Shown: positions 16,569 through 41,545 of the stretch, in pieces
Numbering within the stretch: position 1 is the first letter of the stretch
Layout: each line of letters opens with the position of its first letter
DNA from: Alphaproteobacteria bacterium
GTDB lineage: Bacteria > Pseudomonadota > Alphaproteobacteria > JACZXZ01
Length of the DNA: 64,000 nt
Reading direction: 5' to 3'
Assembly (NCBI GenBank): GCA_035509415.1
Contig: DATJLQ010000096.1
Span: 24,919-88,918 of the forward strand
Translations under genes and position numbers: made by a program
The notes under the pieces: generated by a model
The model's input: the letters and a program-made list of their open reading frames with translations, nothing else
Told to the model about the DNA's origin: nothing
Databases searched by the model: none

Positions 16569-16594
16569 CCTCGCCTGCCGCACCCCGCGCACGT

Positions 16595-17572: not shown

Positions 17573-17653
17573 CCTCCCAATTTTGTTGTGATGCGCCGGC
17601 CGATGCCGTGCGCGTCGTGAAGATGGTCGGCGTTCTATGCCGGGCGATCGCCG

Positions 17654-18193: not shown

Positions 18194-18201
18194 GGCTTCC
18201 C

Positions 18202-19464: not shown

Positions 19465-19497
19465 TCCTCTCTTCGATCGGGCGCGCCGCCCGAATTC

Positions 19498-20079
19498 TCA
19501 GTAGCCCAGCACCTGCTTGAAGGTCTCGCCGCGGCGCAGACGCTCCTCGCGCTCGGCATCGAGGTGCGCCTTCGCGACCGCCTTCTCGGCGACCTCCGCC
19601 GCGCGCTCGGCCTGGACGATCACCACCCCATCCTCGTCGCCGAACACAAGATCGCCCGGCTTCACCGGCACGTCCGCGATCGAGATCGGCACCTGGGTCC
19701 AGCCAGGATGGGATTTGACCGTGCCGCGCACGTTGACGCCCGCGGCATAGATCGGGAAGCGCAGCGCCCGGATCTGCGCCATATCGCGCACCGCGGCGTT
19801 GGTGACGCAGCCCGCGATCTTTTTCGCGACGCACGCGGTGGTCGAGGTGCCGCCCCAGATCGTCGCCCTGTCCGTGGCGCCGGCATCGAGCACGATCACG
19901 CTCCCCGGCGGCGCCTCGTCGATCGCGCGGAACACGACCAGATTGTCGCCCGGCATCGCCTTTACCGTGAACGCCGGCCCGGCGAGCCGCACGCCGTCGA
20001 CCAGGAGACGGATCGGCGGGCCGACATCGCCCCATTTCCCCGCCGCCTCGTAGATGGTCGCCGTCGGCAGCGCCGCCAT
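19498..20079 (-). CDS. RraA-family protein (HMG/CHA aldolase / oxaloacetate decarboxylase-like)
   Basis: MAALPTATIYEAAGKWGDV...VLDAGATDRATIWGG... has the RraA/MenG-like fold. Start taken at the ATG at 20079. The track ORF's 82-aa N-terminal extension is low-complexity. Confidence 0.75.
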   Translation of the reverse strand: MAALPTATIYEAAGKWGDVGPPIRLLVDGVRLAGPAFTVKAMPGDNLVVFRAIDEAPPGSVIVLDAGATDRATIWGGTSTTACVAKKIAGCVTNAAVRDMAQIRALRFPIYAAGVNVRGTVKSHPGWTQVPISIADVPVKPGDLVFGDEDGVVIVQAERAAEVAEKAVAKAHLDAEREERLRRGETFKQVLGY

Positions 20080-20126
20080 GATGGCGAGCGGCGAGCCGGG
20101 GCCCGATGCCGATGTCTTCGACGTGC

Positions 20127-20927
20127 TCACGATATGCGCTCCTCCTCCGCCATGCGCCGCGCCACGGTCGCGGCAGCCGTCTTGATCACCTCGCCAAGGT
20201 CCGCGAACCGCTCGCGGGTTACCTGGCTGGTCGCAAATCCGAGGGAGAGCACGCCAAGCAGCTTTCCGTCGGGACCCCGTACCGGCGCCGCGACCGAGCC
20301 CACGCCTTGGGTGTGCTCTTCCCAATTCACCGAATAGCCGCGCGTCACGACGGCACGCAGGGCCGCCTTCAACCTCGGCAAGCTCGTGATCGTGTGCGGC
20401 GTACGCGCCGGCATGCCGGTGCGCCCGATCATCGCGTCGACCTCGAGCGCAGACAGGGTCGAAAGCGCCGCATGGCCGGTCGCGGAGCTGTGCACCGTGA
20501 GCTTCTCGCCGACAGGAATGCTGTATTTGAGCCGGCCCGGCGCCTCGACGGAATGAAGAATCACCATGCGGTCGTCCTGCAGCGCCGAGAGATAGGCGGT
20601 AACACCCTCGTCGGCGACCACGCGCTCCAGGATCGGGGCCGCGATGCGCCGAATGCGATCGCCGCCGGCGAACAAACCGCCGACCCGCGCAACTTCGGTG
20701 CCCGGCTGATAGCGCCTGGTCTTGGGATCGCGCACGACATAGCCGTGCATCTCGAGCGCCTGGATGAACCGGAGCGTGCTGGTCTTGGAGAGTGCCAGCG
20801 CCCGGCTCGCCTCGACCACGCTGAGGGTGCGGCGTTCGTCGCTAAAGAGCGAAAGCAGCGTGAGCGTGCGGCTCGCGCTCAGGGAGAACTCGGGCTTGCC
20901 GTCGGCGGATGCGGCCCTGCTGATCAT
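20127..20927 (-). CDS. IclR-family transcriptional regulator
   Basis: HTH LSVVEASRALALSKTSTLRFIQALEMHGYV plus IclR C-terminal domain. Confidence 0.85.
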   Translation of the reverse strand: MISRAASADGKPEFSLSASRTLTLLSLFSDERRTLSVVEASRALALSKTSTLRFIQALEMHGYVVRDPKTRRYQPGTEVARVGGLFAGGDRIRRIAAPILERVVADEGVTAYLSALQDDRMVILHSVEAPGRLKYSIPVGEKLTVHSSATGHAALSTLSALEVDAMIGRTGMPARTPHTITSLPRLKAALRAVVTRGYSVNWEEHTQGVGSVAAPVRGPDGKLLGVLSLGFATSQVTRERFADLGEVIKTAAATVARRMAEEERIS

Positions 20928-20962
20928 CGTCGCGACGGGCTCCTTCTGGGGGTCGCTTGAGG

Positions 20963-20976
20963 TCCGTTTATCGGAC
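20963..20976. promoter_or_regulatory. inverted repeat GGACT-TTAT-AGTCC in AT-rich divergent intergenic region; candidate operator
   Basis: Read from the sequence. Located between the divergent IclR gene (minus) and the IclR-TAXI fusion gene (plus), next to the AT-rich stretch TGAATTAGGATAATAAAG. Confidence 0.3.
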
Positions 20977-21237
20977 TTTATAGTCCTGAATTAGGATAAT
21001 AAAGAGCGTCACCGAGCGCGTCAACAGCACCTTGCAGGCCGTCGCCTGCGGCGCGAAATTCGGGAAATACTTCAGTGCGATGAACAATCGGCTATGATGG
21101 TGCGCAGGTGCCGAACCGCGGCAAGGCGCTGCCGGAACCAAGGGGCTGGAGATACCCCTCGGGGTCGACCGCGCGCGCCGTGGCGACGCGACCGTGCCAT
21201 CGTTCGCACCCAATTCCCGCCTCCAAAAGGGAGCGTC

Positions 21238-22974
21238 ATGCCGAAGCGAGCGCGCACCAGGACGGCCTTCGGGAAGGACGTGAACTCGGTCACCAAGGCG
21301 GTCGACGTTCTGCGCGCCTTCATCGACGGCCAGGAAAGCTGGGGCGTGCGCGAGCTCGCCAACGCCCTCGGCCAGCCGGGGAGTTCGACCCATCGCGTGC
21401 TGCAAATCCTGCGGCGCGAGGGTTTCGTCGAATGGGACGCGGAGTCGCGCAAGTATGAAACGGGCATGGAATTTTTCCGCTGGTGGGCGATCCTCGGCGG
21501 ACGCCTCAAGGTCGCCGAGGTCGCGCGTCCATTGATGAGCGAGCTTGCGGGCGAGATCGGCGAGACCTGCCTCCTCGGCCTCTACAAGGCGGGCGACCAT
21601 CGCCACGCCTACGTCGCCGAGGCCCTGGCCCACCAAGGCTCGTCCTTCAACGCGCTGATCGGAAATTACGCGCCGCTTTGGAGCTCCGCAGGCGGCCTCT
21701 CGATCCTGGCGCTTCTTCCCGAGCCCGCGCGCCGGGCCGTATTCAAGGCGCGCGCGGCGACCGGCCCGCGCAACCCGCCCCGGTCCCTCGAAGGCCATCT
21801 CGCTGCGGTGCGCGCGGCCGGCTACGGCGTGATGCTCTCATCGGACGACGACGCCCCCGTCACCGTCGGCGCCGCGGTGACCGACGCGCACGGCAACCCC
21901 GTCGGCAGCCTCACGATCGCGGCCCCGCGCGGACGCTACGCCGAGCCCGCGCTGCGCGAGATCGGCGCGCGCGTCTCGAGCTATGCCGGTCGCCTGTCGC
22001 GCATGATCGGCGCCCAGATGCTGGGTGGCGCCGGAGGAATCGGCAGCTGGACGCTCGGCATCGACGTGATCGCGCGCGTGATTCAGCGCGAGATCCCCGG
22101 CATCGGCTCGACCATCTGGAACGCGAGCGGCGATCAGGCGCTTCAGGACCTCCAGAACGGCCGCGGCGGCTACTGCTTCGCCGTCGCGGGGAGCTTGTGG
22201 AGCGCCTATCGCGGCGAGGCGCCGTTCACGCACCCCCATGGCCAGCTGCGCGCCATGTGCAGCCTGTTTCCGATTTTTCTGCATATCGTCACGCGCCGGA
22301 ACAGCGGGATCGGAAGCTTCCGCGATCTGAAGGGCAAGCGCGTCTCGGCCGGCGAAGCGGACTTCACGACCGCGCGGGTAGTGGCCGAGCTGATGCGCCG
22401 CGCCGGCATTCTCGAGCGCGGAAGGGCGGCCGCACGGACGCTCGTCTATCTCAACTACGCCGAGGCGACGCGCGAGTTCGCCGCCGGCAAGCTCGACGTC
22501 ATCATCTCCCTGACCGCCCTTGGCGACCCGGCCTACCGCAAGCTCGCGCGCTCGTTCGACCTGCGCCTCATTCCTTTGGATGCAGCGTCCGCCGGCGCCT
22601 TCGTCGCGCGCCATTCGGCCTACGAGACGGGCGTCATTCCGGCGGCAACCTACGCCGGTGCCGACGAACCCACCGAGACCTTGGCCGTACCCACCGTCCT
22701 CGTCACGACCGCCGAGCGCAGCGACGACGAGGTCTACGCTGCGACGCGCGCGATCTATCGCGAGCGCGACAGGATCGCGGCGGCGCTCGGCGCGCCTGAG
22801 ACGCTCAAGCCCCCGTACCTGTTCCGCGGCATCGACGTGCCGCTGCACCCGGGTGCCGAGCGCTTTTGGCGCGAGCAGGGATTGATCGGACCGCCCGCGC
22901 TGGTCGCGCCGGCTGCCGCAGCGCGGCGCACGGCGCCCGCCGTCGAGCCGCGCCGGTCGAGTTCCCGGCGTTGA
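21238..22974 (+). CDS. IclR-family regulator fused in-frame to a TAXI-family (TRAP-associated) periplasmic-binding-protein-like domain
   Basis: aa 1-257: IclR wHTH (VRELANALGQPGSSTHRVLQILRREGFV) plus effector domain. aa about 262-578: TAXI hallmarks (GIGSWTLGIDVIARVIQREIPGIGSTIWNASGDQALQDLQNGRGGYCFAVAGSLWSAYRGE ... PLHPGAERFWREQG), with no signal peptide. Strong Shine-Dalgarno AAAGGGAG before the ATG at 21238. Single uninterrupted frame. Confidence 0.75.
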   Translation: MPKRARTRTAFGKDVNSVTKAVDVLRAFIDGQESWGVRELANALGQPGSSTHRVLQILRREGFVEWDAESRKYETGMEFFRWWAILGGRLKVAEVARPLMSELAGEIGETCLLGLYKAGDHRHAYVAEALAHQGSSFNALIGNYAPLWSSAGGLSILALLPEPARRAVFKARAATGPRNPPRSLEGHLAAVRAAGYGVMLSSDDDAPVTVGAAVTDAHGNPVGSLTIAAPRGRYAEPALREIGARVSSYAGRLSRMIGAQMLGGAGGIGSWTLGIDVIARVIQREIPGIGSTIWNASGDQALQDLQNGRGGYCFAVAGSLWSAYRGEAPFTHPHGQLRAMCSLFPIFLHIVTRRNSGIGSFRDLKGKRVSAGEADFTTARVVAELMRRAGILERGRAAARTLVYLNYAEATREFAAGKLDVIISLTALGDPAYRKLARSFDLRLIPLDAASAGAFVARHSAYETGVIPAATYAGADEPTETLAVPTVLVTTAERSDDEVYAATRAIYRERDRIAAALGAPETLKPPYLFRGIDVPLHPGAERFWREQGLIGPPALVAPAAAARRTAPAVEPRRSSSRR

Positions 22975-22993: not shown

Positions 22994-24187
<1,194 letters not shown>

Positions 24188-24202
24188 TCGAACGCCGCAC
24201 GC

Positions 24203-25336
24203 CTAAGCGGCTTTGACTTCGCCCCACGCCTGGATCCACGCGTTCATGTTGTTCGGCCAGCTGTAGGGATAGCGCGCGATATTCCTGGTGATCGCGTCGA
24301 AGCCCATCTTCTCCCGCTCCGCGGGCGTGAAGGCGTCGAGCGCGCCCGTGGTGACCGGGCCATAGCTCGATTCCTTGGCGAGGGCGACGCCGTATTCGGG
24401 CGAAAGCATCGCGTTCACGACCGATTCGGCGAGCGGGGCCTTGGACGAATCCTTCGGAATGAACGCCGACTGGTTCCAGATCAGGATGCCCTCCTTGGGC
24501 CAGGCATTGGTGATCGGCAAGTTCTGCTTCAGAAGCGCCGCGCGCATCGAGAGCCAACCGTACATCGCCCACACCTCGCCGCTCGACATCAGATTTACCG
24601 CCTCGGCGAACTGGGACCACATGGTGCGGAAGTTCTTCTTCTTCGAGATCAGGAATTTCTTCACTTCCGCGAGGTCGGCATCCGACATGGTCGCGGGGTC
24701 CTTGATGCCGAGGGTTAGGGCCGCGACCACGATGCCGCCATACGGATCGTCGCGCATCGCGGTCTTGCCCTTGTACTTGTCGTCGAACAGCACGTTCCAC
24801 GTCTGGGTCGATGCCGCATCCTCGGGAATGTGCTCCTTGTTGTAAAGTGGCGAATCGAATCCCCAGAAGATCGGGATCATGTAGGTCTTGCCGTCGCGCA
24901 CCTGGATCTGCTCGGCGAACAGCGACTGCAGGTTCTTCTCGTTCGGCACCTTGCTCAGGTCGAACGGCCGCACTTTCTCGTCGCCCGCATGCGCCCCGAG
25001 GATCGGCCCCTTCACGAAGTCCGTCACGCTGATCATGAGATCGTAGCGCGACGTCCCGCCGGGCGCGAGCAGCTTGGCAATCGTATCGGTCGGCGAGACG
25101 TAGGGCACGTTGTCGACCTTGACGCCCGAGAGCTTCTCCTCGACCGCGCGCGCGCCGGGCGGGATGACCACGCCGGACATCACACCCGTGATCGTCTCCA
25201 TGCCCCAAGCGGACGTGCTTCCCGCCGCCCCGGTTAGCGCGAGCGCTCCCGCAGCACCCGAAAGTGCCAGGAATTCACGGCGATTAAGACCGGACTCGAA
25301 GCCGGGCCCGTATTTTCCCAAGTTTGTTTTGCTCAT
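24203..25336 (-). CDS. ABC transporter periplasmic substrate-binding protein (PotD/F-like), Tat signal
   Basis: MSKTNLGKYGPGFESGLNRREFLALSGAAGALALTGAAG. Paralogous to the SBP at 8265..9377, sharing the KKFLISKKKNFR block. Confidence 0.85.
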   Translation of the reverse strand: MSKTNLGKYGPGFESGLNRREFLALSGAAGALALTGAAGSTSAWGMETITGVMSGVVIPPGARAVEEKLSGVKVDNVPYVSPTDTIAKLLAPGGTSRYDLMISVTDFVKGPILGAHAGDEKVRPFDLSKVPNEKNLQSLFAEQIQVRDGKTYMIPIFWGFDSPLYNKEHIPEDAASTQTWNVLFDDKYKGKTAMRDDPYGGIVVAALTLGIKDPATMSDADLAEVKKFLISKKKNFRTMWSQFAEAVNLMSSGEVWAMYGWLSMRAALLKQNLPITNAWPKEGILIWNQSAFIPKDSSKAPLAESVVNAMLSPEYGVALAKESSYGPVTTGALDAFTPAEREKMGFDAITRNIARYPYSWPNNMNAWIQAWGEVKAA

Positions 25337-25370
25337 GATCGACTCCTCTGTTGAATGTTCATCCCCGTTC

Positions 25371-26207
25371 TCATCGATCCGTCGCGGGGTGCGCGTCGTC
25401 GCGCGTTCGGCGCGAAACCACGAGGCCAATCAAAGACGTTGTGGCCGAAATCAGCATGATGATCACCGCCATCGCCGGAAGATCGGGCGTCAACTGCTCG
25501 ACGATCATCGACCAGAACATCACCGGGATGGTCCGGTCGTAACCGGTCACGAACAGCGTGCGCACGAATTCGTCGAACGACAGACTGAAGGAGAACAGGA
25601 GCGTCGCGATGATCGCCGGACGCACGATCGGCAGCACGACGTGCCAAAAGACCTCGATCGGGCGCGCTCCGAGGTCCATCGCCGCTTCCTCCACGGCGCG
25701 GTCGAAGCGGTGCAGCCGCGGATACAGCGTGAGGAAGGCGAAGGGGAGGACCCAATCGACGTGCGCGATCAGCACCGTCGTCCACAGCGACGGCGGCACG
25801 CCCAGATAGCCGAAGAACATCAGGAGCATGATGCCGCCCACGATGCCCGGCATCACGATCGGCGCCAGGACCAGGTTGAACAAGGCGCCCTTGAACCGGA
25901 ACTCGTGCCGGAATCCCATGGCGAGGAAAAGTGCGAGGGCGGTCGAGATGACGGCGGCGAGGACGCCCACGGCCAGACTGTGGGCCAGCGCGGTCAGGAA
26001 TTCCGGCGTCTTGAACACTTTCGCGTACCAATCGGCGGTGAAGCGCCGGAACGGGAATCCGATGGTCTCCGAATCGTTGAACGACAGCACGACGATCATC
26101 ACGAGCGGCGCGTATAGCAGAACGTAGAACACGCCGGCGTAAATCCACAAAGCGAGGCGATAAGGCGAGACGCGCCCCCGCCTGGGTCCGGTCGCGGCCG
26201 CGATCAT
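25371..26207 (-). CDS. ABC transporter permease (PotC-like)
   Basis: Start MIAAATGP at 26207 overlaps the upstream permease stop (ATGA). EAA loop VEEAAMDLGARPIEVFWHVVLP. Confidence 0.85.
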   Translation of the reverse strand: MIAAATGPRRGRVSPYRLALWIYAGVFYVLLYAPLVMIVVLSFNDSETIGFPFRRFTADWYAKVFKTPEFLTALAHSLAVGVLAAVISTALALFLAMGFRHEFRFKGALFNLVLAPIVMPGIVGGIMLLMFFGYLGVPPSLWTTVLIAHVDWVLPFAFLTLYPRLHRFDRAVEEAAMDLGARPIEVFWHVVLPIVRPAIIATLLFSFSLSFDEFVRTLFVTGYDRTIPVMFWSMIVEQLTPDLPAMAVIIMLISATTSLIGLVVSRRTRDDAHPATDR

Positions 26208-27136
26208 CGACGGCCTCCCGAAACGACCTGCTGCAGCCCGATCCAGCGCCCGAACACGATGAGAAGCAGCAGCACGACCCCGAACAGCACGACGGACAGC
26301 GCGGCGCCGAACGCCCAATTGTTGGTCGAGATGTATTGAATCGCGATCATGTTGCTGTAGAGGATGCCCGACGTCCCGCCCAGAAGCTGCGGCGTCACGT
26401 AGGCGCTGACCGAAAGGAGAAAGACCATGAGCGAGCCCGACAGCACGCCGGGCCAGCTGAGCGGAAGAATGACGCGCCAGAAGATCCAAAACGGCCGCGC
26501 GCCGAGGTCCGCCGCCGCCTCGATCAGCCGCGGGTCGATCTTGTCGATCGAGAGATAGATCGGCAGGGTCATGAACAGCGTATAGACGTAGATCAGGCCG
26601 ATATAGACCGCGCCGCTATCGTAGAGCAGCCAGCCGATCGGGTGGTCGATGAGCCCGAGGTAAAGCAAAAACTGATTGATCGCGCCCGTGGTCCCGAGGA
26701 TGGGCAGCCAAACGAAGGTGCGCACCACGTAGCTGGTCCAGAACGGCAGGAACAGCAGCAGCACGAACCCCGTCTTGGCGGTGCCCCGGAGGGTCGCGAG
26801 GAGATAGGCGATCGGATACGAGATCGCGAGCGAGATCAGGGTCGTGACGAACGATACCCATAGGGTCTTGACGAGAAGGTTGCGGTAGAACGGCGTCGCC
26901 AAGGCCTGGGCGTAGTTGCCGAACTGGAAAGCGGGCGTCGTGCCGAAGATCGTCGAGGTCCAGAACGACATCGCGATCGCGAAGCCGAACGGAACGAGGA
27001 CGAAGACCGCGAGCCAGATCAGCCCCGGCGAGAGCATCAAAAAGGCGGTGCGGCGGGCGCGGCGACGCGCGGCGCCGGTCGCCGCGGTCGGCAACGTGAG
27101 CGACACATGTCCCGTATCCGCCGCCATCGACGCCAT
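26204..27136 (-). CDS. ABC transporter permease (PotB-like)
   Basis: Polytopic permease, IEAAADLGARPFWIFWRVILP. Confidence 0.85.
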   Translation of the reverse strand: MASMAADTGHVSLTLPTAATGAARRRARRTAFLMLSPGLIWLAVFVLVPFGFAIAMSFWTSTIFGTTPAFQFGNYAQALATPFYRNLLVKTLWVSFVTTLISLAISYPIAYLLATLRGTAKTGFVLLLFLPFWTSYVVRTFVWLPILGTTGAINQFLLYLGLIDHPIGWLLYDSGAVYIGLIYVYTLFMTLPIYLSIDKIDPRLIEAAADLGARPFWIFWRVILPLSWPGVLSGSLMVFLLSVSAYVTPQLLGGTSGILYSNMIAIQYISTNNWAFGAALSVVLFGVVLLLLIVFGRWIGLQQVVSGGRR

Positions 27137-27177: not shown

Positions 27178-28995
27178 TCATGTCCGCCGCCCGCGCGGCA
27201 CTTTCCCGGAAACGTCGTCGGACGCCGTCTTGGCTCCCCGCATCGTCCCGGTGCGCGCGCGATCGACCTCGAATGTCGCGGCATCGAGCGCGACGCCGTA
27301 ATCCGTCGCCGCCGCCTCGACCGTGACGCGGCCCTCGCGCGCATCCTCGACAACCGATTCGACGGCGCGCTCGAACGGATCGCCGAAACCCCCGCCGCCG
27401 CCGAGCTGGAAGCGAATCCGGTCGCCCGGCAGGAAGCGGCGGTAAATGCCATGCTCGATCGTCTTGCCGTTGAGCCAGAGCCCGCCGCCACGCCCGTTGC
27501 GGCCGCCGCAGCGGCCCTGGAGGGGAAAGTCGCCGCTCTCGCCGCGCCCGTTGAGGCGAACCGAGCCTTCGACGAAATCCTGCGGCCCCTGCGCGCCGCC
27601 CAGAATCTCGAATTCGACCGACTGGCCGAGACCGCCGCGCTGCCGGCCCGGTCCGCCCGAATCCGCGACCAGCTCCTTCTCGAGAAACCGCACCGGCGCC
27701 TCGTTCTCGGTGACCTCGATCGGGATGTTGCGCGTGTTGTTCGGGAAGCACAGGGTCGGATAGCCGTCGTATTTGTGGCTCGCGCCGAAACCGCCGCTAT
27801 GCTGTTGGATCGCGAGGAAGGAGCGGCCGTCGCGCCGCCACTTGCCGTGGAGATAAATCTCGTTGGCGGGACAGCCGCCGTTTGCCGCGAGCACGGCCTC
27901 GGGCATCGCCTTCTCGAGCGCGCCGAAGATGATCTCGGGATAGAGGTGGGAGATCATGGTACGGCCCCAAGTCGCCGCCGGGGGTCGGCAGTTCACGACG
28001 GAGCCCAGCGGCGCGACGATCTCGATCGGGCGCATGCAGCCGTCGTTGTTCGGCACCTCCGGATCGAACGCAAGCTTGATCGGATAGGCGCTATAGGAGC
28101 GCGTCGAGTTGAGGGTACAGTTGATCGCGGCGCCGACCTCGCCCGAGGTGCCCGTGTAGTCGATCGTCACGCGGCCGTCCTTGATCGTGACCGCCGCCTT
28201 GATGCGGACCTCGTCCGGGCAATGGGGGATGCGCGGCAGCACCACTTCGTTGTGGTAGGTTCCCTCGGGCAGCCGCCGCAACTTCGCGCGCAGGCTGCTT
28301 TCGGTGCGCTCGATGATCTCGCGGCCGAGCTCCTCGAGCCCGTCGAGCTGGTACTCGTCGAGGAGGCGCAGGAGGCCCTGGGTGCATACATGGTTGGCGA
28401 CCAGCTGGGCACGCAGGTCGCCCAGCACCTTGTCGGGCACCCGGATGTTCGCCTTCATGAACTCGAAGATCGCCCGGTTGAGGCGCCCCGCCTCGTACAG
28501 CTTGAGGATCGGGATCTTGAGCCCCTCCTCGTAGATGTTCTTCGACTCGAGCGTCGACATGCGTCCACCCATGTCGAGATGGTGGACGATGCAGAGCGTG
28601 TAACCGACGGCGCGCCCGCCGTGGAAGATCGGCGAGGCGACCGATACGTCGATCAGATGGCCGCTCGCGAGCCACGGATCGTTCGTGATGAGAACGTCGC
28701 CCGGCTCAAGCGTTTCCGGCGGATGCGCCTTGAGGAAGTTGCGCATCACCTCGGGCACGATACCGAGGAAGCCGGCGGTCGTGACCGTCGAATGGGAAAG
28801 CATCCTGCCGTCGCGGTCGAACAGCGCGCAGCAGAAATCGTGATACTCCTTGACCGACGGGGTGTAGGCCGTGCGCATCAATCCGGTCGCCGCCTCGTCG
28901 ACGATCGAGATCAGGCGGTTCCAGAGCACTTGGATCGTCACCGCGTCGAGCAGGTTCGAGCGATTGCGCGATGAGGGAATTGAAACGGCGCTCAT
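27178..28995 (-). CDS. hyuB: hydantoinase B / oxoprolinase-family subunit (HyuB)
   Basis: 605 aa; VLWNRLISIVDEAATGLMRTAYTPSVKEYHDF...GGGGFGDP; Hydantoinase_B fold. Confidence 0.9.
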   Translation of the reverse strand: MSAVSIPSSRNRSNLLDAVTIQVLWNRLISIVDEAATGLMRTAYTPSVKEYHDFCCALFDRDGRMLSHSTVTTAGFLGIVPEVMRNFLKAHPPETLEPGDVLITNDPWLASGHLIDVSVASPIFHGGRAVGYTLCIVHHLDMGGRMSTLESKNIYEEGLKIPILKLYEAGRLNRAIFEFMKANIRVPDKVLGDLRAQLVANHVCTQGLLRLLDEYQLDGLEELGREIIERTESSLRAKLRRLPEGTYHNEVVLPRIPHCPDEVRIKAAVTIKDGRVTIDYTGTSGEVGAAINCTLNSTRSYSAYPIKLAFDPEVPNNDGCMRPIEIVAPLGSVVNCRPPAATWGRTMISHLYPEIIFGALEKAMPEAVLAANGGCPANEIYLHGKWRRDGRSFLAIQQHSGGFGASHKYDGYPTLCFPNNTRNIPIEVTENEAPVRFLEKELVADSGGPGRQRGGLGQSVEFEILGGAQGPQDFVEGSVRLNGRGESGDFPLQGRCGGRNGRGGGLWLNGKTIEHGIYRRFLPGDRIRFQLGGGGGFGDPFERAVESVVEDAREGRVTVEAAATDYGVALDAATFEVDRARTGTMRGAKTASDDVSGKVPRGRRT

Positions 28996-28998
28996 CCT

Positions 28999-31140
28999 TC
29001 AGTTCTCCACGACGGTCGCTTCGGGACCCAACGCCCCCTTACCGGCGGGCAAACCCGGCCGGACCTCAACGTCGAGGCAGCCATAGGCATCGACCACGAC
29101 GCGGTCGCCGATACCGATGATGGTCGTCGATTCGCGCTCCTCGATCACCGCCGGACCGACCAAGATCTGGCCGACCTGAAGGGACGACCGCTCGAACACG
29201 GGTGCGCGCCGGAACGCCGCGCTGCCGACGACGTAGATGTCCCGGAATGCCTTGGGCGCCGCGTCGGTCATGGCGGCCGGCCGCGAGATGGCTGGCGCGC
29301 GCACGCGTCGCTGGAGCTGGATCCGGGCGGTTGCGACCTCGATCGAGTTTTCCTCGTCGACCTTGCCGTAGAGCGTCGCATAAAGCTCGAGGAAGGCTGC
29401 GCTCCACGCCGCAACCGCAGTCTCGGCCTGGATCGGCCGCTCGATCGGAATTTCCAGCGAATAATCCTGTCCCGCGTAGCGCAAGTCGAGGAAGCGCATG
29501 TACTGCGCCTCGGAGAGTTCGGGCAGGAGTGCTGCGGCATCGCGCTCGATCTCCTCGAAGATCGTTTCCAGCGCCTCGAGATCGACGGTCGTGAGCAACG
29601 CGCCCACCGTGCGGCTGCGCTCGATCGCCATCGGCGCCGCGAGCAGGCCGAGAGACGACATGACGCCCGAGAATGGCGGGATCACGACGCGTCCGATTCC
29701 GAGCTTGCGCGCGAGCTCGACCGCGTGCACCGGGCCCGCGCCGCCCGAGGCGACCAGGGCGAGATCGCCGCTCGATTTCCCCTTGTCGGTGACGTAGATG
29801 CGCGCCGCCGCCGCCATGGTTTCGCTCACCAGGCCGAAGATGCCTGCGGCTGCGGCGGCGATATCGAGTCCGGTCGGGACGGCGATCTTGGTCTTGATCG
29901 CGCGCTCGGCGGCGGCGCGATCGAGCGGCATCTCGCCGCCGAGAAAATAATCCGGATTGAGATAACCGAGCACGAGATCGGCGTCGGTCACGGTCGGATC
30001 CTTACCGCCGAGCCCGTAGCATGCCGGCCCCGGATCCGAGGCGGCGCTATTGGGCCCGACCTGCAGCAGATCGAGATCGTTCACGCGCGCGATGCTGCCG
30101 CCGCCGGCGCCGATTTCGAGCAGATCGTAAACCGGGAGCGAGACCGGATATCCGCTGCCGGCCTTGAATCGGTGCACGCGGCCGACCTCGAACGAGCGCG
30201 TGCGCGCGGCGTGACCGTTCTCGATGATGCAGAGCTTCGCCGTCGTGCCGCCCATGTCGAAGGCGAGCATGGTGTCGAGGCCGATCAGGCGGCCGAAGAA
30301 GCCGACCGCCTCGACGCCCGCGGCCGGTCCGGATTCGAGGATCTGGACCGGGAAACGCTTTGCGGTGTCGACCGTCGCGGTGCCGCCGTTGGACAGCATG
30401 AGGAACAGACTGCGTGCGAAGCCGCGCTTTTTGAGGCCCTCGTCGAGCCGCTCGATATAGGCGCTCGCGGTGCGCTTCACGTAAGCGTCGATCACCGTGG
30501 TCGAGGTGCGCTCGAATTCCTTGGGCTCCGGCAAGACCTCGTGGGAAAGCGAGAGATCGACGCCCGGGAGTTCGGCGGCCAGGATTTCGGCAGCGCGCTT
30601 CTCGTTCGCAGGATTCCGATAGGAATGGAGGAAGCAAATCGCGACCGCCTCGACCCCCTCGCGCCGGAACAGGGCCGCCGCTTCTTTCAGCTCCTGCTCA
30701 TTCACCGCCTCGGTCACGCTGCCGTCGGAGAGGGTGCGCTCGGATATGCCGACCCTCAGCCGGCGCGGCACGAGCGGCGGCGGGAACCGGATGAACATGT
30801 CGAAGACGGTGTATCGAACCTCGCGCCCGATCTCGAGGATATCGCGGAAGCCCTTGGTGGTGATCAGCCCGGTACGGCTGCCCTTGCCCTCGAGGATCAC
30901 GTTGGTCACGAGAGTGGTCGCGTGGATGATGTCGTTGGTCGTAGGCAGGAGATCGGGCAAGGCCTCGGCGAGCCGCTTGAGGCCGGCATAGACCGCCAAA
31001 TCCGGCCGCTCGGGCGTGGTGAGCGTCTTTTCGATCCGAATCCGGCCGCTCGACTGGTCGGTCACCGTGAAGTCGGTGAACGTCCCGCCGATGTCGATGC
31101 CGATACGATATTTGCCGCTTGCCACCCGCGCATCCAACAT
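28999..31140 (-). CDS. hyuA: hydantoinase A / oxoprolinase-family ATPase subunit (HyuA)
   Basis: MLDARVASGKYRIGIDIGGTFTDF... sugar-kinase/ASKHA-like N-terminus and hydantoinase_A domains. Start ATG at 31140. Confidence 0.9.
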   Translation of the reverse strand: MLDARVASGKYRIGIDIGGTFTDFTVTDQSSGRIRIEKTLTTPERPDLAVYAGLKRLAEALPDLLPTTNDIIHATTLVTNVILEGKGSRTGLITTKGFRDILEIGREVRYTVFDMFIRFPPPLVPRRLRVGISERTLSDGSVTEAVNEQELKEAAALFRREGVEAVAICFLHSYRNPANEKRAAEILAAELPGVDLSLSHEVLPEPKEFERTSTTVIDAYVKRTASAYIERLDEGLKKRGFARSLFLMLSNGGTATVDTAKRFPVQILESGPAAGVEAVGFFGRLIGLDTMLAFDMGGTTAKLCIIENGHAARTRSFEVGRVHRFKAGSGYPVSLPVYDLLEIGAGGGSIARVNDLDLLQVGPNSAASDPGPACYGLGGKDPTVTDADLVLGYLNPDYFLGGEMPLDRAAAERAIKTKIAVPTGLDIAAAAAGIFGLVSETMAAAARIYVTDKGKSSGDLALVASGGAGPVHAVELARKLGIGRVVIPPFSGVMSSLGLLAAPMAIERSRTVGALLTTVDLEALETIFEEIERDAAALLPELSEAQYMRFLDLRYAGQDYSLEIPIERPIQAETAVAAWSAAFLELYATLYGKVDEENSIEVATARIQLQRRVRAPAISRPAAMTDAAPKAFRDIYVVGSAAFRRAPVFERSSLQVGQILVGPAVIEERESTTIIGIGDRVVVDAYGCLDVEVRPGLPAGKGALGPEATVVEN

Positions 31141-31167
31141 GTTCAATATTGTTGAACAGCACTGTTC
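31141..31167. promoter_or_regulatory. two overlapping inverted repeats GTTCAA-TATTG-TTGAAC and GAACAG-CA-CTGTTC at the divergent hyuA / Rieske promoter; candidate operator
   Basis: Read from the sequence. Starts immediately at the minus-strand hyuA start codon, about 90 bp upstream of the Rieske alpha ATG. The half-site resembles the palindrome at 11201. Confidence 0.35.
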
Positions 31168-31252
31168 CATAAGCCAGGATGGGACGCAAGCGCGAATCGC
31201 GCCATGTCGGAACCGCCGGCGGCCGGCACGGCGCGTGGAAGGAGGGGCGCAC

Positions 31253-32524
31253 ATGACGCTCGTCAATGACCCGGGATTCACGGTCGACTGGCCGCGCGAC
31301 GATTATTCGCGCATTCCCTACTGGCTGTTCCACGATCCCAAGGTCTACGAACTGGAGCGCGCGCGCATCTTCCGCGGCCCGGTATGGAATTATCTTGGGC
31401 TCGAGGCGGAGATCCCGAAGCCCGACGATTTCCGCACCACCTTCGTGGGCGACATTCCGGTCGTCGTCGCTCGCGCCGGCGACGGCACGGTCCACGCGTT
31501 CGTCAACCGCTGCGCCCACCGCGGCGCCCAGATCGTCCGCACGACGCACGGCAGCGCCAAGGATTTCGTCTGCATTTATCATCGCTGGTGCTATTCGCTC
31601 GAAGGCGATCTCATCGGCATCCCGTTCAAGCGCGGCCTCAAGGGCCAGGGCGGCATGGCCGATTTCGACATGGCGGCGAACGGCCCCGAGAAGCTGCGCG
31701 TGGCGAGCCTGAGCGGCATGATATTCGGCACTTTCTCCGCCCATACCGAGCCGCTGGAGGGTTACCTGGGCGCCTTCGGTTGCGGCCTGATCGAGCGCCT
31801 GCTGGGGAAGCCGATCCGCATCTATGGCTACCAGCGCCAGGTGATTCACGCGAACTGGAAATTCTACGCGGAGAACTTGCGCGATACCTACCATGCGAGC
31901 CTGCTGCACACCTTCCTGTCGTCCTACGGCATCGATCGGGCGACCCAGAAAGGGGGCGTCAAGATGGACGGCCGCCACCGCCACAGCATGAATTATGCCT
32001 TCGCGGCGACCGACGGCCAGGATGAGGCGCGCGCCGCCTATGCCGGCAATTCGGGCGTCTCTCTCGATCGGCTCAAGCTGCGCGACGGCTCCCTGATGCG
32101 CTACGTGCCGGAGTTCGAGGACGGCATGAACCTCGCGACCCCGACATTCTTCCCCAATGTCCTGCTGATCCAGGTCAACAACGTCCTCTCGACGCGCCAG
32201 ATCCGGCCGAAGGGCAAGGACGCGTTCGAGGTGTTCCAGACCCTGTTCGGCTATGCCGACGACGACGAGGCCATGACGCGCCATCGCCTGAAGCAGTCGA
32301 ACCTGGTTGGGCCGGCGGGCTATGTCTCGATGGAGGACGGCGAGGCGATCGAGCTCGCCCACCGCGCGAGCGCCTCCTCGCAGGGCTTTACCTCCGTGAT
32401 CGAGATGGGAGGGCGCGGGCCGATCCGCGACCTCGAGCACCGGGTTACCGACGTGCCGGTGCGCGGCTTCTGGTCTTATTGGTCGGAGCTCATGGGCGTC
32501 GAGCCCGTTTGCGGGGTGCGATGA
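31253..32524 (+). CDS. Rieske non-heme iron ring-hydroxylating oxygenase, alpha subunit
   Basis: Rieske CAHRG...(17)...CIYHRW and mononuclear iron site DTYHASLLH. Shine-Dalgarno GGAAGGAGGGG before the ATG. Confidence 0.9.
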   Translation: MTLVNDPGFTVDWPRDDYSRIPYWLFHDPKVYELERARIFRGPVWNYLGLEAEIPKPDDFRTTFVGDIPVVVARAGDGTVHAFVNRCAHRGAQIVRTTHGSAKDFVCIYHRWCYSLEGDLIGIPFKRGLKGQGGMADFDMAANGPEKLRVASLSGMIFGTFSAHTEPLEGYLGAFGCGLIERLLGKPIRIYGYQRQVIHANWKFYAENLRDTYHASLLHTFLSSYGIDRATQKGGVKMDGRHRHSMNYAFAATDGQDEARAAYAGNSGVSLDRLKLRDGSLMRYVPEFEDGMNLATPTFFPNVLLIQVNNVLSTRQIRPKGKDAFEVFQTLFGYADDDEAMTRHRLKQSNLVGPAGYVSMEDGEAIELAHRASASSQGFTSVIEMGGRGPIRDLEHRVTDVPVRGFWSYWSELMGVEPVCGVR

Positions 32525-32988
32525 GCCGGCGCGAGGCGGTGCGCGATCTGGTCGTCGAATATGGCGCGCTCATCGACGCGGACCGTCTCGAGGATTGGGT
32601 CGAGCTCTTCGCTTCCGACTGCCGGTACAGCGTCATCAGTGCGGAAAATCTGGCGCAAGATCTGCCGCAAACGCTCATGGCGTGCGACAGCAAGGACATG
32701 CTGCGCGATCGGGTGACCGCGTACCGGGAAGTGAACGAATACAATTTCCACAGCGACCGCCACGTAATCGGCGGCGTGCGCTTCCGCGACGAGAGCACGG
32801 GCGGTCCCTGGCGCATCGAGGCGAACTACAGCCTGTTCCAGACCGACGTGGAGGGAGTCACGCGCTTGTTTCTCGTCGGTCAGTACGACATGTCGGTCGT
32901 GTTCGAGGACGAGCGGCCGCGCTTTGCCGATGTGCGCGTGGTGGTCGACACTGCCTCGATCCCGACCCTCCTCGCGACACCGATATAA
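32521..32988 (+). CDS. ring-hydroxylating oxygenase beta subunit (NTF2/SnoaL-like)
   Basis: MSRREAVRDLVVEYGALIDADRLEDWVELFASDCRY... is a typical small subunit. ATGA overlap with the alpha stop. Confidence 0.8.
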   Translation: MSRREAVRDLVVEYGALIDADRLEDWVELFASDCRYSVISAENLAQDLPQTLMACDSKDMLRDRVTAYREVNEYNFHSDRHVIGGVRFRDESTGGPWRIEANYSLFQTDVEGVTRLFLVGQYDMSVVFEDERPRFADVRVVVDTASIPTLLATPI

Positions 32989-33079: not shown

Positions 33080-35155
33080 ATGACTTCTGGACGCACCCTG
33101 GACAATCCTCGACAGCCGAGCGAGCGCGCGGTCGATCCCGTGACGCTTCAGGTCTTTCAACAGCGCTTGATCGGCATCGTGCGCGAGATGCGCGCGACCA
33201 TGGTCCATTCCGCCTTCTCGGCCGCGATTTGCGAGCTGTTCGATCTCTCCTGCGCGCTCTTGAGCGCGCGCGGCGAGTTGATCGTCCAGTCCGAGGACAA
33301 CCCGCAGCACATTTTCCCGCTCCTCTGGTCGGCCCAGGAAGTGATGCGCCGCTACGGCAACGACATACGGCCCGACGACGTTTTCCTCCACAACGACCCC
33401 TACGAGGGCGGAACACACCTCAACGACATCGCGATCATCGTACCCTTTTTCGTCGACGGCCAGCTCGTTGCATTCCCGGTTGTGCGCGCTCATTGGGAGG
33501 ATGTCGGCGGCTCGACGCACGGCAGCATATCGGGCCAGAACCGCGAGATCTTCCAGGAAGGCCTGCGCATCCCGCTCACGCGCCTCAAGGCGAACTCGCC
33601 CGAGTTCGAGGCGTTCATGGCGCTGCTGTTCTCGAACATGCGCATTCCCAACGAGCGCCGCGGCGATTTCGACGCCATGATGGGGACTTCCGAGATCGGG
33701 CGGCGCCGGCTCGCCGAGGTCGTGGACCGCTATGGCGTGGGCCAGGTGCTGCGCTTCATGGACCGACTCCTCGACCAGGAGGAGACGCGCATGAGGGCAA
33801 AATTGAGGGCGCTTCCCGAGGGCGCTTTCACGTTCGAGAACTATCTCGATCCTCGGCCCGATCTCGGCGTGGCCCAGAAGATCGCCGTGCGCGTCGCGAT
33901 CGCGGACGGCCGCATCGAGGTTTCGTTCGACGGCTCGAGTCCCCAGATCGACGGACCCTTCAATATCGGCCCCTCGGGCGCGCCGACCGGCGTCTTTATC
34001 ATCGCGAAGTCGCTGCTCGACCCGAAAGGACCGGTCAATTCCGGGAGCTTCCGGCCCATTTCGGTCGACGCGCCGGCGGGCTCGTTCGTCAATGCCGTCT
34101 ACCCCGCTGCGGTGGGCGCCATGGGCGACGTCCGGCGGTCCTTGGAAAGCACCGTCATGGCGGCCCTGGCATCGGTCCTGCCCGACCGCGTCACCGGCGA
34201 CACGAAGGGCACGTCGAACCAGCTTTTGATCGGCGGACGCCGGCCTGGCACCGGCCATGCCTGGCTTCTTTACGAGGCGCCTGCCGGCGGTACCGGCGGC
34301 TTCGAGGGCGGCGACGGCAATTCCACCTTGCGCACATTTGCCGAGGGCGACTTCAGCGCGGTCCAGCCGGTCGAGGCGATCGAGCAGAAATTTCCGCTGC
34401 GCGTCGAGGAAGTGTGTCTGCGCGCCGATTCCGCGGGCGACGGCAAATATCGCGGCGGTCTCGGCATGCGTCGCGTGATCCGCCTTCTGGTCGAGAGCGC
34501 GTCCCTGTCGAGCGTGTCGGACAAGAACGTGGTCCCGCCTTATGGACTTTTCGGCGGCACCGGTGGTGCCCAGAACAAAATCTCGGTCGAGCGCGGCGGC
34601 AAATCGATCGCACCGTCGCGGGCGCCGGGCAAGATCTCCAACTTCCACCTGCGCAAGGACGACCGCGTCATCTTCGAGTCGAGCGGCGGCGGCGGCTATG
34701 GCGATCCGCTCGATCGCGATCCGGACGACGTCGCGCGCGACGTGAGCCTGGGATACGTCTCCGCGTCGCGGGCGCGCCAGGTCTATGGCGTCGTCGTGAG
34801 CCGCGGCAAAGCATCGGCCGCGAAGACCGGCGTCCGGCGCCGCGCGCTTCTGAACGCGCGCGTGACTTTATCGGTTGCGCTCGGCGAGGTACCGGCAAAT
34901 GCGCTCAAGCTGCCGACCGCGCTTGTCCATCCCGCGACTGCGCGCAAGGCAAACTTGCGCGCGGGCCAGATCGGCGAACTCCTTTCGGCGCGCAAGCCCG
35001 CCGCTCCCATTCGGATCGTGATCGCGACATCGGCCGGGCTCGCGCGCGGCAAGATCGTCGTCGCGAGGAGCGCGGCGCGCTTTCACGGATGGGCATCGGG
35101 CCACGGCGTGCGGTTGCGCGCGCTGCCGCGGCACGTCGATGCGTTTCAGGAGTGA
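33080..35155 (+). CDS. hyuB: hydantoinase B / oxoprolinase-family subunit (HyuB) with approx 130-aa Ala/Arg-rich C-terminal extension
   Basis: Core like the minus-strand HyuB (VFQQRLIGIVREMRATMVHSAFS...GGGGYGDPLDRDP), then extra residues ...GKIVVARSAARFHGWASGHGVRLRAL. Total 692 aa versus 605 aa for the paralog. Confidence 0.82.
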   Translation: MTSGRTLDNPRQPSERAVDPVTLQVFQQRLIGIVREMRATMVHSAFSAAICELFDLSCALLSARGELIVQSEDNPQHIFPLLWSAQEVMRRYGNDIRPDDVFLHNDPYEGGTHLNDIAIIVPFFVDGQLVAFPVVRAHWEDVGGSTHGSISGQNREIFQEGLRIPLTRLKANSPEFEAFMALLFSNMRIPNERRGDFDAMMGTSEIGRRRLAEVVDRYGVGQVLRFMDRLLDQEETRMRAKLRALPEGAFTFENYLDPRPDLGVAQKIAVRVAIADGRIEVSFDGSSPQIDGPFNIGPSGAPTGVFIIAKSLLDPKGPVNSGSFRPISVDAPAGSFVNAVYPAAVGAMGDVRRSLESTVMAALASVLPDRVTGDTKGTSNQLLIGGRRPGTGHAWLLYEAPAGGTGGFEGGDGNSTLRTFAEGDFSAVQPVEAIEQKFPLRVEEVCLRADSAGDGKYRGGLGMRRVIRLLVESASLSSVSDKNVVPPYGLFGGTGGAQNKISVERGGKSIAPSRAPGKISNFHLRKDDRVIFESSGGGGYGDPLDRDPDDVARDVSLGYVSASRARQVYGVVVSRGKASAAKTGVRRRALLNARVTLSVALGEVPANALKLPTALVHPATARKANLRAGQIGELLSARKPAAPIRIVIATSAGLARGKIVVARSAARFHGWASGHGVRLRALPRHVDAFQE

Positions 35156-35164
35156 TCGCGCGCC

Positions 35165-37222
35165 ATGCTCGTCCTCGGCATCGACATCGGCGGCACGTTC
35201 ACGGACCTGATCCTCTACGACACCGAGGCGGGGACATTCTCGGCCGGCAAAGTCCCTTCCGTACCCGGACGGCAGTGGGAAGGGCTCGCGGCCGGCCTTG
35301 CGGCACTCGACCTCGATGCGGGTCGACTCGCAAGCGTGGTGCACGGCACCACGGTCGGGACCAACGCAATCCTCGAAGGCAAGACCGCGCGCACGGCGCT
35401 CGTCACCACCAAGGGTTTCCGCGACGTGCTCGAAATCGGGCGCAGCATGCGCTTGACTCCCGGCAGCCTGTTCGACACGCGCTTCAAGCGCCCCGCGCCG
35501 CTGGTGCCGCGCAATCTGCGCCTCGAGCTCAAGGAGCGCATCGGCGCGCGCGGCGAGGTGGTGACGCCGCTCGAGCCGCCCACGCTCGAGGCGCTCGCCC
35601 GCGCGCTGCGCGCGTCGAAGACCGAGGCGGTCGCGGTCTGCCTGATCAATGCGTACGCCAACCCCGATCACGAGAAGCGCGTCGTGGATTTCCTCTCGCA
35701 CGCGAATCTCGACGCCGCAATCTATCCCTCCCACGAGATCTCTCCCGAATATCGCGAATACGAGCGGACTTCGACCACGGTCATCAACGCCGCCGTGAGC
35801 CCGATCATCGACCGATACCTCGAGGCCTTCGAGGGTACGTTGCGCGAGCGGGGCTTCGCCGGCTCGCTGTTCATCATGGCGTCCAATGGCGGCACGCTCC
35901 CGCGCCGTGTCGTGAGCCGCTCGGGCGCGCACACGATCCTTTCCGGGCCCGTGGGCGGCGTCCGGGGGGCGCTTTTGGTCGCGAAATCGATCGGCCGGTC
36001 GCGCGTGATCACGCTCGACATGGGCGGCACCAGCACCGATGTCGCCCTGATCGACGGGCACGAGCCCGAAATGGCCGACGTGACGGTGATCAACGGCATG
36101 CCCTTGCGCCTGCCTCAACTCAACATCGTGACCGTGGGCGCGGGCGGCGGAAGCCTGGCCAAGATCGACGAGGGCGGCGGGGTCGATGTGGGCCCGGAGA
36201 GCGCGGGCGCGCGTCCCGGTCCGGCCTGCTACGGCTTCGGCAATGCCACGCCGACGGTGACCGACGCGAATCTGGCGCTCGGCCGCCTGGGCGTCGAGTT
36301 GATCGGCGGCGCCATGCGCATGCAGCCCGAGCTCGCGACCGCGGCGATCGAGCGCTTGGCGGCGGCGGCCGGCGTCGAGCCCATGCACCTCGCCTCGGGC
36401 ATCGTCGAGATCGCGGTCGCGCGCATGGCGAATGCGATCCGCGAGGTCTCGGTCGAGCAAGGCGCCGACCCGCGCGGCTTCGCGCTGTTCGCCTTCGGCG
36501 GCGCGGGACCGCTGCATGGCTGCGCGGTCGCGTCCGAGCTCGGCATCGCCGAGGTGATCGTGCCGCCGTATCCCGGCCATGTCTGCGCCTATGGGCTGCT
36601 TGCCTCGGAGCTGCGCCAGGATCGCGCACGCACGTGGCTGCGCGCGTTCGCCGATGTCGACCGGAAGACGCTACGGCAGGCGCTCGAGAAGGAGGGCGAT
36701 GCGCTGCGAAAATCGGTTCGTCAGGCGGGCTGGCCCCTCGATAGGACCGACCTCCGCTACGCGCTCGATCTTCGCTATGTGGGGCAGTCCTTCGCGGTAC
36801 GGGTCGAGCTGCGCGGCCTCGCGGATGGGGACATCGAGGCGCTGCCGGCGGATTTCGGCGCGCGCCATGAGGAGCTCTACGGTCATCGCCATACGCGCGG
36901 CATCGAGATCGTGACCCTGCGCGTCACGGCGCGCGCGCCGCGAGCCTTCGGTTTCGACTTGCCGAAGGCGACACCGCCAAGCCGCTCGGGGTCGGGTCCG
37001 CGCGCGAGCGTCTCCCGCTTGCGCCGGATTTACGAGCGTGGAGCGTGGGTGGAGTGCCCGGTCGTCGATCGCGCCGATCTTTCGCCGGGCGACACGCTGG
37101 TTGGCCCCGCGATCGTCGAGGAAATCGGATCGACGACTTTCGTCGAGCGCGGATGGACGATGCGCGTCGAGCCGACTCTCGCGATGGTCCTTACGACGCG
37201 GGCCGAGACCGGGAAAGATTGA
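35165..37222 (+). CDS. hyuA: hydantoinase A / oxoprolinase-family subunit (HyuA)
   Basis: MLVLGIDIGGTFTDLILYD.... Gene order B then A; 10-nt gap after hyuB. Confidence 0.9.
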   Translation: MLVLGIDIGGTFTDLILYDTEAGTFSAGKVPSVPGRQWEGLAAGLAALDLDAGRLASVVHGTTVGTNAILEGKTARTALVTTKGFRDVLEIGRSMRLTPGSLFDTRFKRPAPLVPRNLRLELKERIGARGEVVTPLEPPTLEALARALRASKTEAVAVCLINAYANPDHEKRVVDFLSHANLDAAIYPSHEISPEYREYERTSTTVINAAVSPIIDRYLEAFEGTLRERGFAGSLFIMASNGGTLPRRVVSRSGAHTILSGPVGGVRGALLVAKSIGRSRVITLDMGGTSTDVALIDGHEPEMADVTVINGMPLRLPQLNIVTVGAGGGSLAKIDEGGGVDVGPESAGARPGPACYGFGNATPTVTDANLALGRLGVELIGGAMRMQPELATAAIERLAAAAGVEPMHLASGIVEIAVARMANAIREVSVEQGADPRGFALFAFGGAGPLHGCAVASELGIAEVIVPPYPGHVCAYGLLASELRQDRARTWLRAFADVDRKTLRQALEKEGDALRKSVRQAGWPLDRTDLRYALDLRYVGQSFAVRVELRGLADGDIEALPADFGARHEELYGHRHTRGIEIVTLRVTARAPRAFGFDLPKATPPSRSGSGPRASVSRLRRIYERGAWVECPVVDRADLSPGDTLVGPAIVEEIGSTTFVERGWTMRVEPTLAMVLTTRAETGKD

Positions 37223-39221: not shown

Positions 39222-39228
39222 CGCCGGC

Positions 39229-41450: not shown

Positions 41451-41466
41451 ATTTGATATGTCAAAT
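41451..41466. promoter_or_regulatory. inverted repeat ATTTGA-TATG-TCAAAT (plus upstream TTTGAC half-site) in divergent iorA / VOC intergenic region; candidate operator
   Basis: Read from the sequence. AT-rich island with three TTTGAY/RTCAAA half-sites between 41431 and 41470. Confidence 0.3.
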
Positions 41467-41545
41467 ATCTCCCGGACGCGGCGGCTGCGGGCCGATGCGC
41501 GTCCCCGGCCTCGGTCGGCGGCCCGCGCGAGTATGGAGACGGCCA

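Follow-up and report, generated by a model that had tools for sequence, protein, structure and literature searches.

The DNA analysed here is a 64-kb stretch (G+C ~68%) of an alphaproteobacterial contig (DATJLQ010000096.1), called the window, in which two divergent gene sets face each other across a 112-bp spacer (31141-31252). The minus-strand side consists of hyuA1-hyuB1, and the plus-strand side of the genes for the alpha and beta subunits of a Rieske oxygenase followed by hyuB2-hyuA2 (Table 1); gene functions in the window were read from Pfam and NCBIfam domain searches. The genes within a pair are 3 nt (pair 1) or 9 nt (pair 2) apart, and hyuA1-hyuB1 continues, tightly packed and without real gaps, into the genes of a PotD-type ATP-binding cassette (ABC) transporter down to 22994, a gene order that is kept in the related loci L002, L004, L166, L167 and L086. 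The original prediction, made from the letters of the window, had described two divergent HyuA/HyuB pairs, which the domains and coordinates confirm, and a palindromic control region shared between them; its gene list for the Rieske operon overlooked the beta-subunit gene, which is also called in loci L001 and L002. The palindrome, here named op1, lies at the hyuA1 end of the spacer. From the comparison of related loci we think it likely that op1 is the operator of the hyuA1B1-ABC operon in a catabolic locus regulated in the style of IclR, and that the Rieske genes with hyuB2A2 form a separate module.

op1 is conserved upstream of hyuA1

Seven independent loci with HyuA1 identities of 62-100% were compared (window, L002, L088, L004, L166, L167 and L086), and identical copies were counted once (L001 with the window, L005 with L004, L168 with L167). 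HyuB1 orthologs are 79-88% identical. Scans of genomes and metagenomes with HyuA1 gave, among the matches listed, mostly paralogs of at most 47% identity, the useful loci being L006, L007 and L086-L089. The motif GTTCA(A/G)-N5-(C/T)TGAAC is found once in each of the seven loci, 10-50 nt upstream of hyuA1; it is exact in six (window, L002, L088, L004, L166 and L167) and has one mismatch in L086. The 5-nt spacer bases are different in every locus, and the arms are constant or changed symmetrically (A/G with C/T). When the seven upstream regions are aligned, invariant columns are confined to three islands (TTGC, TGG.A...T and the operator arms), and an invariant TTGC-N14-TGGnAnnnT precedes op1.

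The gene on the other side of op1 varies. Upstream of hyuA1 lies the Rieske operon in the window and L002, an iclR gene in L004, an aldo-keto reductase gene in L167, another hyuB in L166 and other same-strand open reading frames (ORFs), putatively TRAP-transporter genes, in L086. Because its position and sequence are conserved in seven loci, whatever the gene upstream, we take op1 to be a real site, and the earlier view of the palindrome as a functional-looking control element is upheld in these orthologous hyuA1 loci. In motif searches, GTTCAA-N5-TTGAAC has a single match in the window, even at up to two mismatches, and one stray exact match to the op1 motif turned up elsewhere in 2.31 Mb of fetched loci. 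We conclude from this comparison that op1 is a conserved DNA element linked to the region of the hyuA1 promoter.

Predicted promoter and start codon of hyuA1

The first two islands fall on a predicted promoter. TTGC, invariant in all seven loci at a fixed distance, begins the putative -35, and the invariant columns of the second island match the TG dinucleotide and the second and sixth bases of the hexamer in a predicted extended -10. With this promoter, op1 would cover about -2 to +16, a repressor position. A second palindrome overlapping op1 had also been described. A weaker repeat, TTGTTGAACAG/CTGTTCCATAA (82%), is indeed present at 31149-31172 and extends to CTGTTCC at 31162-31168; the arm given earlier as 'CTGTTC' coincides with the predicted extended -10, and the whole is better read, from the alignment, as an operator arm beside that conserved element, with a distance to the palindrome that varies 2-3 nt between loci. 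We also considered 'TGGAAC' as a third operator half-site and rejected it in favor of the extended -10, only T, G, G, A and T being invariant.

The ATG at 31140, which would give a HyuA1 of 713 aa, adjoins the palindrome, and L002 has ATA in its place. The window, L002 and L088 have in common a GTG 15 nt further downstream (31125; 708 aa) that follows GGA(T/C), and in more distant loci a clear GAGG Shine-Dalgarno sequence stands between operator and start. The true start of hyuA1 is probably the GTG, which would place the palindrome about 15 nt before it. Since the ATG is not conserved, the position of the palindrome exactly at the start codon, as originally claimed, was probably an accident of annotation.

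op1 and the Rieske cassette

Rieske alpha homologs of 70-73% identity occur in unrelated neighborhoods, and the op1 motif was not found at their loci L169-L171. The neighbors there are Liv-type ABC transporters, PhyH dioxygenases or a nitrilase-family gene. The Rieske cassette stands beside op1 only in the window and its 85% relative. Because op1 stays with hyuA1 in loci that have no Rieske genes and is missing at the Rieske homologs, it belongs to hyuA1, and Rieske-hyuB2A2 is by this comparison a separate module, joined to a pre-existing hyuA1 promoter only in the lineage of the window and L002.

Nevertheless, a single regulator could act through op1 as one shared operator on both divergent operons, hyuA1B1-ABC and Rieske-hyuB2A2, as first proposed. 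The spacer is only 112 bp long, and half of it is taken up by the stretch that is conserved in both the window and L002 (31140-31203), the Rieske-proximal half having diverged freely. The right arm TTGAAC could also serve as a plus-strand -35 (TTGAAC, 17 nt, CAGGAT), and IclR proteins are often tetramers that act at divergent promoters. Co-control by op1 is thus geometrically possible, with proximity as its basis. However, op1 accompanies hyuA1 where Rieske genes are absent, the candidate plus-strand -10 is not kept in L002 (CGGGAT), and 95 nt or more separate op1 from the Rieske ATG. Moreover, the conserved half of the spacer contains a palindromic block, GCGCGAATCGCGC, with the counterpart GCGTGAATCGCGC in L002, that is absent from the hyuA1 loci lacking Rieske genes; this lineage-specific block may be an element of the Rieske promoter and could be that operon's own control site. 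We therefore regard a shared operator as a real possibility, though the less probable arrangement. Of the original claim, a palindrome at hyuA1 stands, and the palindrome as a feature common to Rieske and Hyu genes does not.

Candidate regulators of op1 and a second palindrome

The original prediction had local IclR regulators among its candidates, which is upheld. Two IclR-family genes co-occur with op1 in every op1-positive locus with enough flank (window, L002, L004 and L167), and neither lies within 10 kb in the op1-negative hyuA1 orthologs L003 and L007. One encodes a fusion of a complete IclR protein (HTH and IclR_C) with a TAXI-family solute-binding domain (NMT1_3) of the tripartite ATP-independent periplasmic (TRAP) type, 544-587 aa long across loci; no description of such an IclR::TAXI fusion turned up in literature searches. 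The other encodes a short IclR protein and heads an iclR-rraA-like-leuC-like-leuD-like-TRAP operon. The best NCBIfam matches of the two regulators are BhcR and PcaR/PcaU, below the equivalog cutoffs. In keeping with an IclR operator, op1 is a 17-19-bp palindrome just downstream of a predicted promoter, with IclR genes co-occurring.

The fusion gene ends the hyuA1 operon in L004 and L167 and is inverted but adjacent in the window and L002. Its place at the end of that operon in other genomes makes the fusion regulator the favored binder of op1. A different palindrome, op2 (GTCCG-N5-CGGAC), lies beside the start of the short iclR in four loci (window, L002, L004 and L167). The simplest assignment from these positions pairs the fusion regulator with op1 and the short IclR with op2, and the short IclR probably controls its adjacent iclR-rraA-leuCD-like-TRAP operon.

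It would also be conceivable for the short IclR to bind op1, with the fusion in another role or with both proteins bound. In L004 the short iclR and hyuA1 diverge directly from one common intergenic region, and the co-occurrence of the short IclR with op1 is as consistent as that of the fusion. Yet the short IclR has its own distinct conserved box at its start in four of four loci, as expected of an autoregulated operator, and the arms of op1 are unlike those of op2 in both sequence and length. On balance we find it doubtful that the short IclR is the protein at op1.

A 12-nt island, TGAACAATCGGC (window 21081-21092; L002 about 20022-20033), is identical in the two loci within an otherwise diverged stretch between the regulators. 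Within it is a single op1-like half-site, and the fusion regulator may control its own gene through this island.

Enzyme function of the Hyu pairs

Both pairs belong to the HyuA/HyuB superfamily: the main domains are full-length with E values of 1e-48 to 1e-151, with weaker values for the C-terminal domain of HyuA (1e-07 to 1e-09). Caprolactamase NCBIfam models gave the best score for all four proteins (HyuA1 512, HyuB1 231, HyuA2 468 and HyuB2 270 bits), short of their 1000-bit cutoff. For the acetophenone and acetone carboxylase models, which have cutoffs of 1250-1500 bits, the scores were 105-312. Among solved structures, HyuB1 comes closest to N-methylhydantoinase and to a chain deposited under the name 'Hydantoinase', which we take to be the caprolactamase beta subunit, and the ABC binding protein has only distant polyamine-binding relatives in the solved-structure search. 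We infer that HyuA1B1 hydrolyzes a lactam or cyclic amide at the expense of ATP, as enzymes of the N-methylhydantoinase/5-oxoprolinase/caprolactamase kind do.

One or both pairs could instead be ATP-dependent carboxylases of the acetone/acetophenone carboxylase type. Both match ApcC/ApcA/ApcD models, HyuB1 matches the acetone carboxylase alpha subunit, and the long HyuB2 approaches the length of a carboxylase subunit (684-776 aa). Against this, the caprolactamase models outscore the carboxylase models throughout, and the best solved matches are the N-methylhydantoinase and the chain that we read as caprolactamase. Acetone and acetophenone carboxylases include an additional gamma-type small subunit, and no gene for one was seen between the two pairs or flanking them. 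Moreover, the binding protein of the linked ABC importer is of the amine type. We consider carboxylation improbable for these enzymes.

HyuB1 has no ortholog in the plasmid collection searched, where all matches were below 40% identity, and hence no link to opine-catabolic plasmids.

Proposed regulation of the hyuA1B1-ABC operon

Taken together, we favor op1 as the operator of hyuA1B1-ABC. Lying just downstream of the predicted promoter (TTGCGT/17 nt/TGG-AACAGT), op1 would cover the transcription start, and an IclR-family repressor, which we propose to be the IclR::TAXI fusion, would bind it as a dimer or tetramer and block RNA polymerase until a substrate or intermediate of the pathway released it. 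HyuA1B1 would then open the ring of a compound imported by the PotD-type ABC transporter.

Several observations weigh against this proposal. All equivalog-level scores of the Hyu proteins are far below their cutoffs. A sigma-70 consensus scan of the region detected no promoter, and the hyuA1 promoter is read from conservation. The choice of binder between the two IclR proteins is drawn from gene position only, and the independent loci, among the matches listed, number only seven. In addition, when the spacer is shuffled, 5.3% of the shuffles have a perfect inverted repeat whose arms are 7 nt or longer; op1 is thus only marginally non-random from the window alone, and the window by itself is therefore weak support and no proof of function.

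This shuffle frequency could suggest that op1 is a chance inverted repeat or, as symmetric arm changes would also preserve pairing, an RNA hairpin in the hyuA1 leader, but either is very improbable, given that position and sequence are kept in seven loci with arm bases invariant and not merely complementary, that the leader folds no better than its shuffles (z = -1.15) with a minimum-energy fold that leaves the palindrome unused, and that an Rfam search of the spacer matched no family. We conclude that op1 is not an RNA element.

Table 1. Positions of the genes and predicted control elements in the window and, where a locus is named, in its relatives.
Feature	Position	Strand	Description
hyuB1	27178-28995	-	HyuB-type subunit, 605 aa; Hydantoinase_B domain, full, E 2.7e-143
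hyuA1	28999-31140	-	HyuA-type ATP-binding subunit; Hydant_A_N, Hydantoinase_A, Hydant_A_C; IGIDIGGTFTD motif
op1	31140-31158		TGTTCAA-TATTG-TTGAACA; perfect 7-nt arms (100% complementary), 5-nt spacer
Predicted extended -10	31161-31169	-	TGG AACAGT; invariant T, G, G, A, T columns
Predicted -35	31184-31189	-	TTGCGT; 17 nt from -10
Palindromic block	31190-31202		GCGCGA-A-TCGCGC
Rieske oxygenase alpha subunit	31253-32524	+	423 aa; Rieske and Ring_hydroxyl_A domains
Rieske oxygenase beta subunit	32521-32988	+	155 aa; SnoaL_4 and Ring_hydroxyl_B domains
hyuB2	33080-35155	+	Long HyuB, 691 aa; Hydantoinase_B domain; identical to database protein HUC61733.1
hyuA2	35165-37222	+	685 aa; Hydant_A_N, Hydantoinase_A, C-terminal HyuA domain
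PotD-type ABC transporter	22994-27136	-	Downstream of hyuB1; Pfam and NCBIfam matches
ABC permease	26204-27136	-	Pfam/NCBIfam
Second ABC permease	about 25371-26207	-	Pfam/NCBIfam
PotD-like binding protein	within 24203-25429	-	Pfam/NCBIfam
PotA-like ATPase	22994-24187	-	Pfam/NCBIfam
IclR::TAXI-type (NMT1_3) fusion regulator	21238-22974	+	578 aa; HTH_IclR, IclR_C, NMT1_3; TRAP_TAXI 170 bits
Fusion regulator, L002	18190-19953
Fusion regulator, L004	14494-16128
Fusion regulator, L167	16220-17884
op2	20962-20986		GTCCG-TTTAT-CGGAC, overlapped by GGACT-TTAT-AGTCC; kept in L002, L167, L004
op2, L002	20132-20157
op2, L167	6841-6877		Two copies
op2, L004	about 6115
Short IclR regulator	20127-20927	-	266 aa; first gene of iclR-rraA-leuCD-like-TRAP operon
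Companion operon	14806-20110	-	RraA-like, LeuC-like, LeuD-like, DctP, DctQM
RraA-like aldolase	about 19498-20110	-
LeuC-like	18202-19464	-
LeuD-like	17654-18205	-
DctP	16595-17572	-
DctQM	14806-16503	-

Relationship of the two Hyu pairs

The two pairs share 37% (A1 and A2) and 29% (B1 and B2) identity and are, from their sequences, ancient paralogs and not recent duplicates (>90%), in agreement with the original prediction. HyuB2 had been called extended, and it is longer than HyuB1. The raw ORF of 743 aa from 32924 overlaps the Rieske beta gene at its N-terminal part, the real protein having 691 aa, and the surplus over HyuB1 is a C-terminal tail of ~100 aa (window 34850-35152) that is common to hundreds of homologs of 665-696 aa and is thus a trait of the whole subfamily, not a local one. 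Some long HyuB relatives have sub-threshold CDC48_N matches, and the tail in the window has an insignificant match to Molydop_binding (E 0.18). CDC48_N and Molydop_binding are double-psi barrel folds, which is a hint that the tail could be a double-psi beta-barrel domain.

Pair 2 is a member of a HyuBA lineage distinct from that of pair 1 and widespread, marked by B-A order and a long HyuB. Orthologs of pair 2, also in B-A order, lie within PotD-type ABC operons in L172 (71%/66% identity) and L175 (63%/58%). In L175, pair 2 is followed by a cupin gene and by LeuC-like, LeuD-like and RraA-like genes, with a divergent iclR. A scan of both loci found no op1, and op2 gave only one-mismatch matches away from the regulatory intergenic region, which suggests that these pair-2 loci use other control sites. 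Each Hyu lineage would thus normally own a paralogous kit of transporter, LeuCD-like and RraA-like genes; pair 2 of the window is without a transporter of its own and is coupled to the Rieske oxygenase. Because both lineages have paralogous kits, related substrates converging on one downstream route are favored, and two related rings feeding one route appear more likely than sequential steps on a single substrate. The original suggestion of sequential or alternative ring-opening steps is therefore retained as far as related chemistry goes, for which the kit in L175 speaks, and sequential order is the less likely part of it.

The companion operon in the window is linked to hyuA1B1 in L004, L167 and the P0009 contig, and partly in L002, where RraA-like and aconitase-like genes are present and no TRAP genes were seen within the locus.

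As a speculative extension, which we hold only tentatively and rate as rather unlikely in its entirety, these genes could represent a widespread kit for N-heterocyclic (lactam or imide) carboxylates under an IclR::TAXI substrate sensor. HyuAB would be the ring-opener, the PotD-type transporter the importer, and the LeuCD-like and RraA-like proteins a hydratase and an aldolase; the fusion would be a new type of one-component regulator whose TAXI domain senses the substrate. HyuB2A2, having lost its own transporter, would be coupled to a Rieske oxygenase that makes the lactam in situ from an aromatic N-heterocycle, and the two branches would meet at a common set of downstream enzymes, perhaps under one operator.

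HyuA/HyuB-type ring-openers are abundant in soil and marine genomes, yet substrates are known for only a few of them. The recurrent gene kit constrains the chemistry, op1 and its predicted promoter offer a handle for reporter-based ligand screening, and two candidate sensor proteins are at hand, of which one carries a solute-binding domain in addition. Once the regulator's ligand is found, it would probably reveal what a large orphan group of enzymes acts on. In regulatory terms op1 is conventional, part of an ordinary IclR-style locus with a few unusual details.

Comparison with known systems

As in the IclR-family systems of PcaR/PcaU/PobR, KdgR, AllR, IclR and BhcR, genes for regulators with HTH_IclR and IclR_C domains stand beside a catabolic operon, a palindrome (15-17 bp in those systems) overlaps the promoter, and a box at the regulator's own promoter suggests autoregulation. 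Unlike in those systems, one regulator carries an extra TAXI-type solute-binding domain, the scores are sub-equivalog, and binding to op1 is predicted. No described operator matching GTTCAR-N5-YTGAAC, and none tied to IclR, appeared in the literature search. Literature searches for the gene set found no paper describing it, the relevant ones being those on a skatole-induced cluster and on caprolactamase.

The caprolactamase CapAB of Pseudomonas jessenii is an enzyme of the HyuA/HyuB family (PMC6061476). The window pairs have the same two-subunit domain architecture as CapAB, N-methylhydantoinase and 5-oxoprolinase. Unlike CapAB, they score 231-512 bits against the 1000-bit cutoff and are not orthologs, and their neighborhood has PotD-type ABC transporter, LeuCD-like and RraA-like genes. 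In Rhodococcus ruber R1, the skt cluster, which is induced by skatole, combines a Rieske large-subunit gene, sktA, with caprolactamase-like SktIJ in B-A order, for which a role has only been proposed (bioRxiv 10.1101/2024.12.29.630347). By gene content alone it is a precedent for a Rieske gene with a B-A pair; it differs from the window in being actinobacterial and in having many extra genes. The best NCBIfam match of the Rieske alpha and beta subunits is the anthranilate 1,2-dioxygenase AndAcAd (Burkholderia type), but alpha scores 420 bits against a cutoff of 750 and beta 133 against 230, and the cassette of the window or L002 has no ferredoxin or reductase genes (AndAb/AndAa). Nor is a ferredoxin or reductase gene adjacent to the Rieske pair in L169, L170 or L171, and the electron donors are therefore encoded elsewhere.

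Flanking genes and other Hyu pairs

To the right of the Rieske cassette lie genes for indolepyruvate:ferredoxin oxidoreductase-like beta and alpha subunits (37623-41424, minus strand), followed by a DUF1989 (urea-amidolyase-associated-like) gene and an enolase-superfamily gene (41458-42597 and 42416-43801, plus strand). The corresponding flank of L002 has proline racemase-like, ornithine cyclodeaminase-like and asparaginase genes. As these genes differ between the window and L002, they are outside the Rieske-hyuB2A2 cassette.

A second, unrelated HyuA/HyuB pair lies beside an ortholog of pair 1 or pair 2 in L166 (827-4575), L003 (14993-18741) and L172 (1435-5588). Loci with several Hyu pairs are thus recurrent, with different partners each time.

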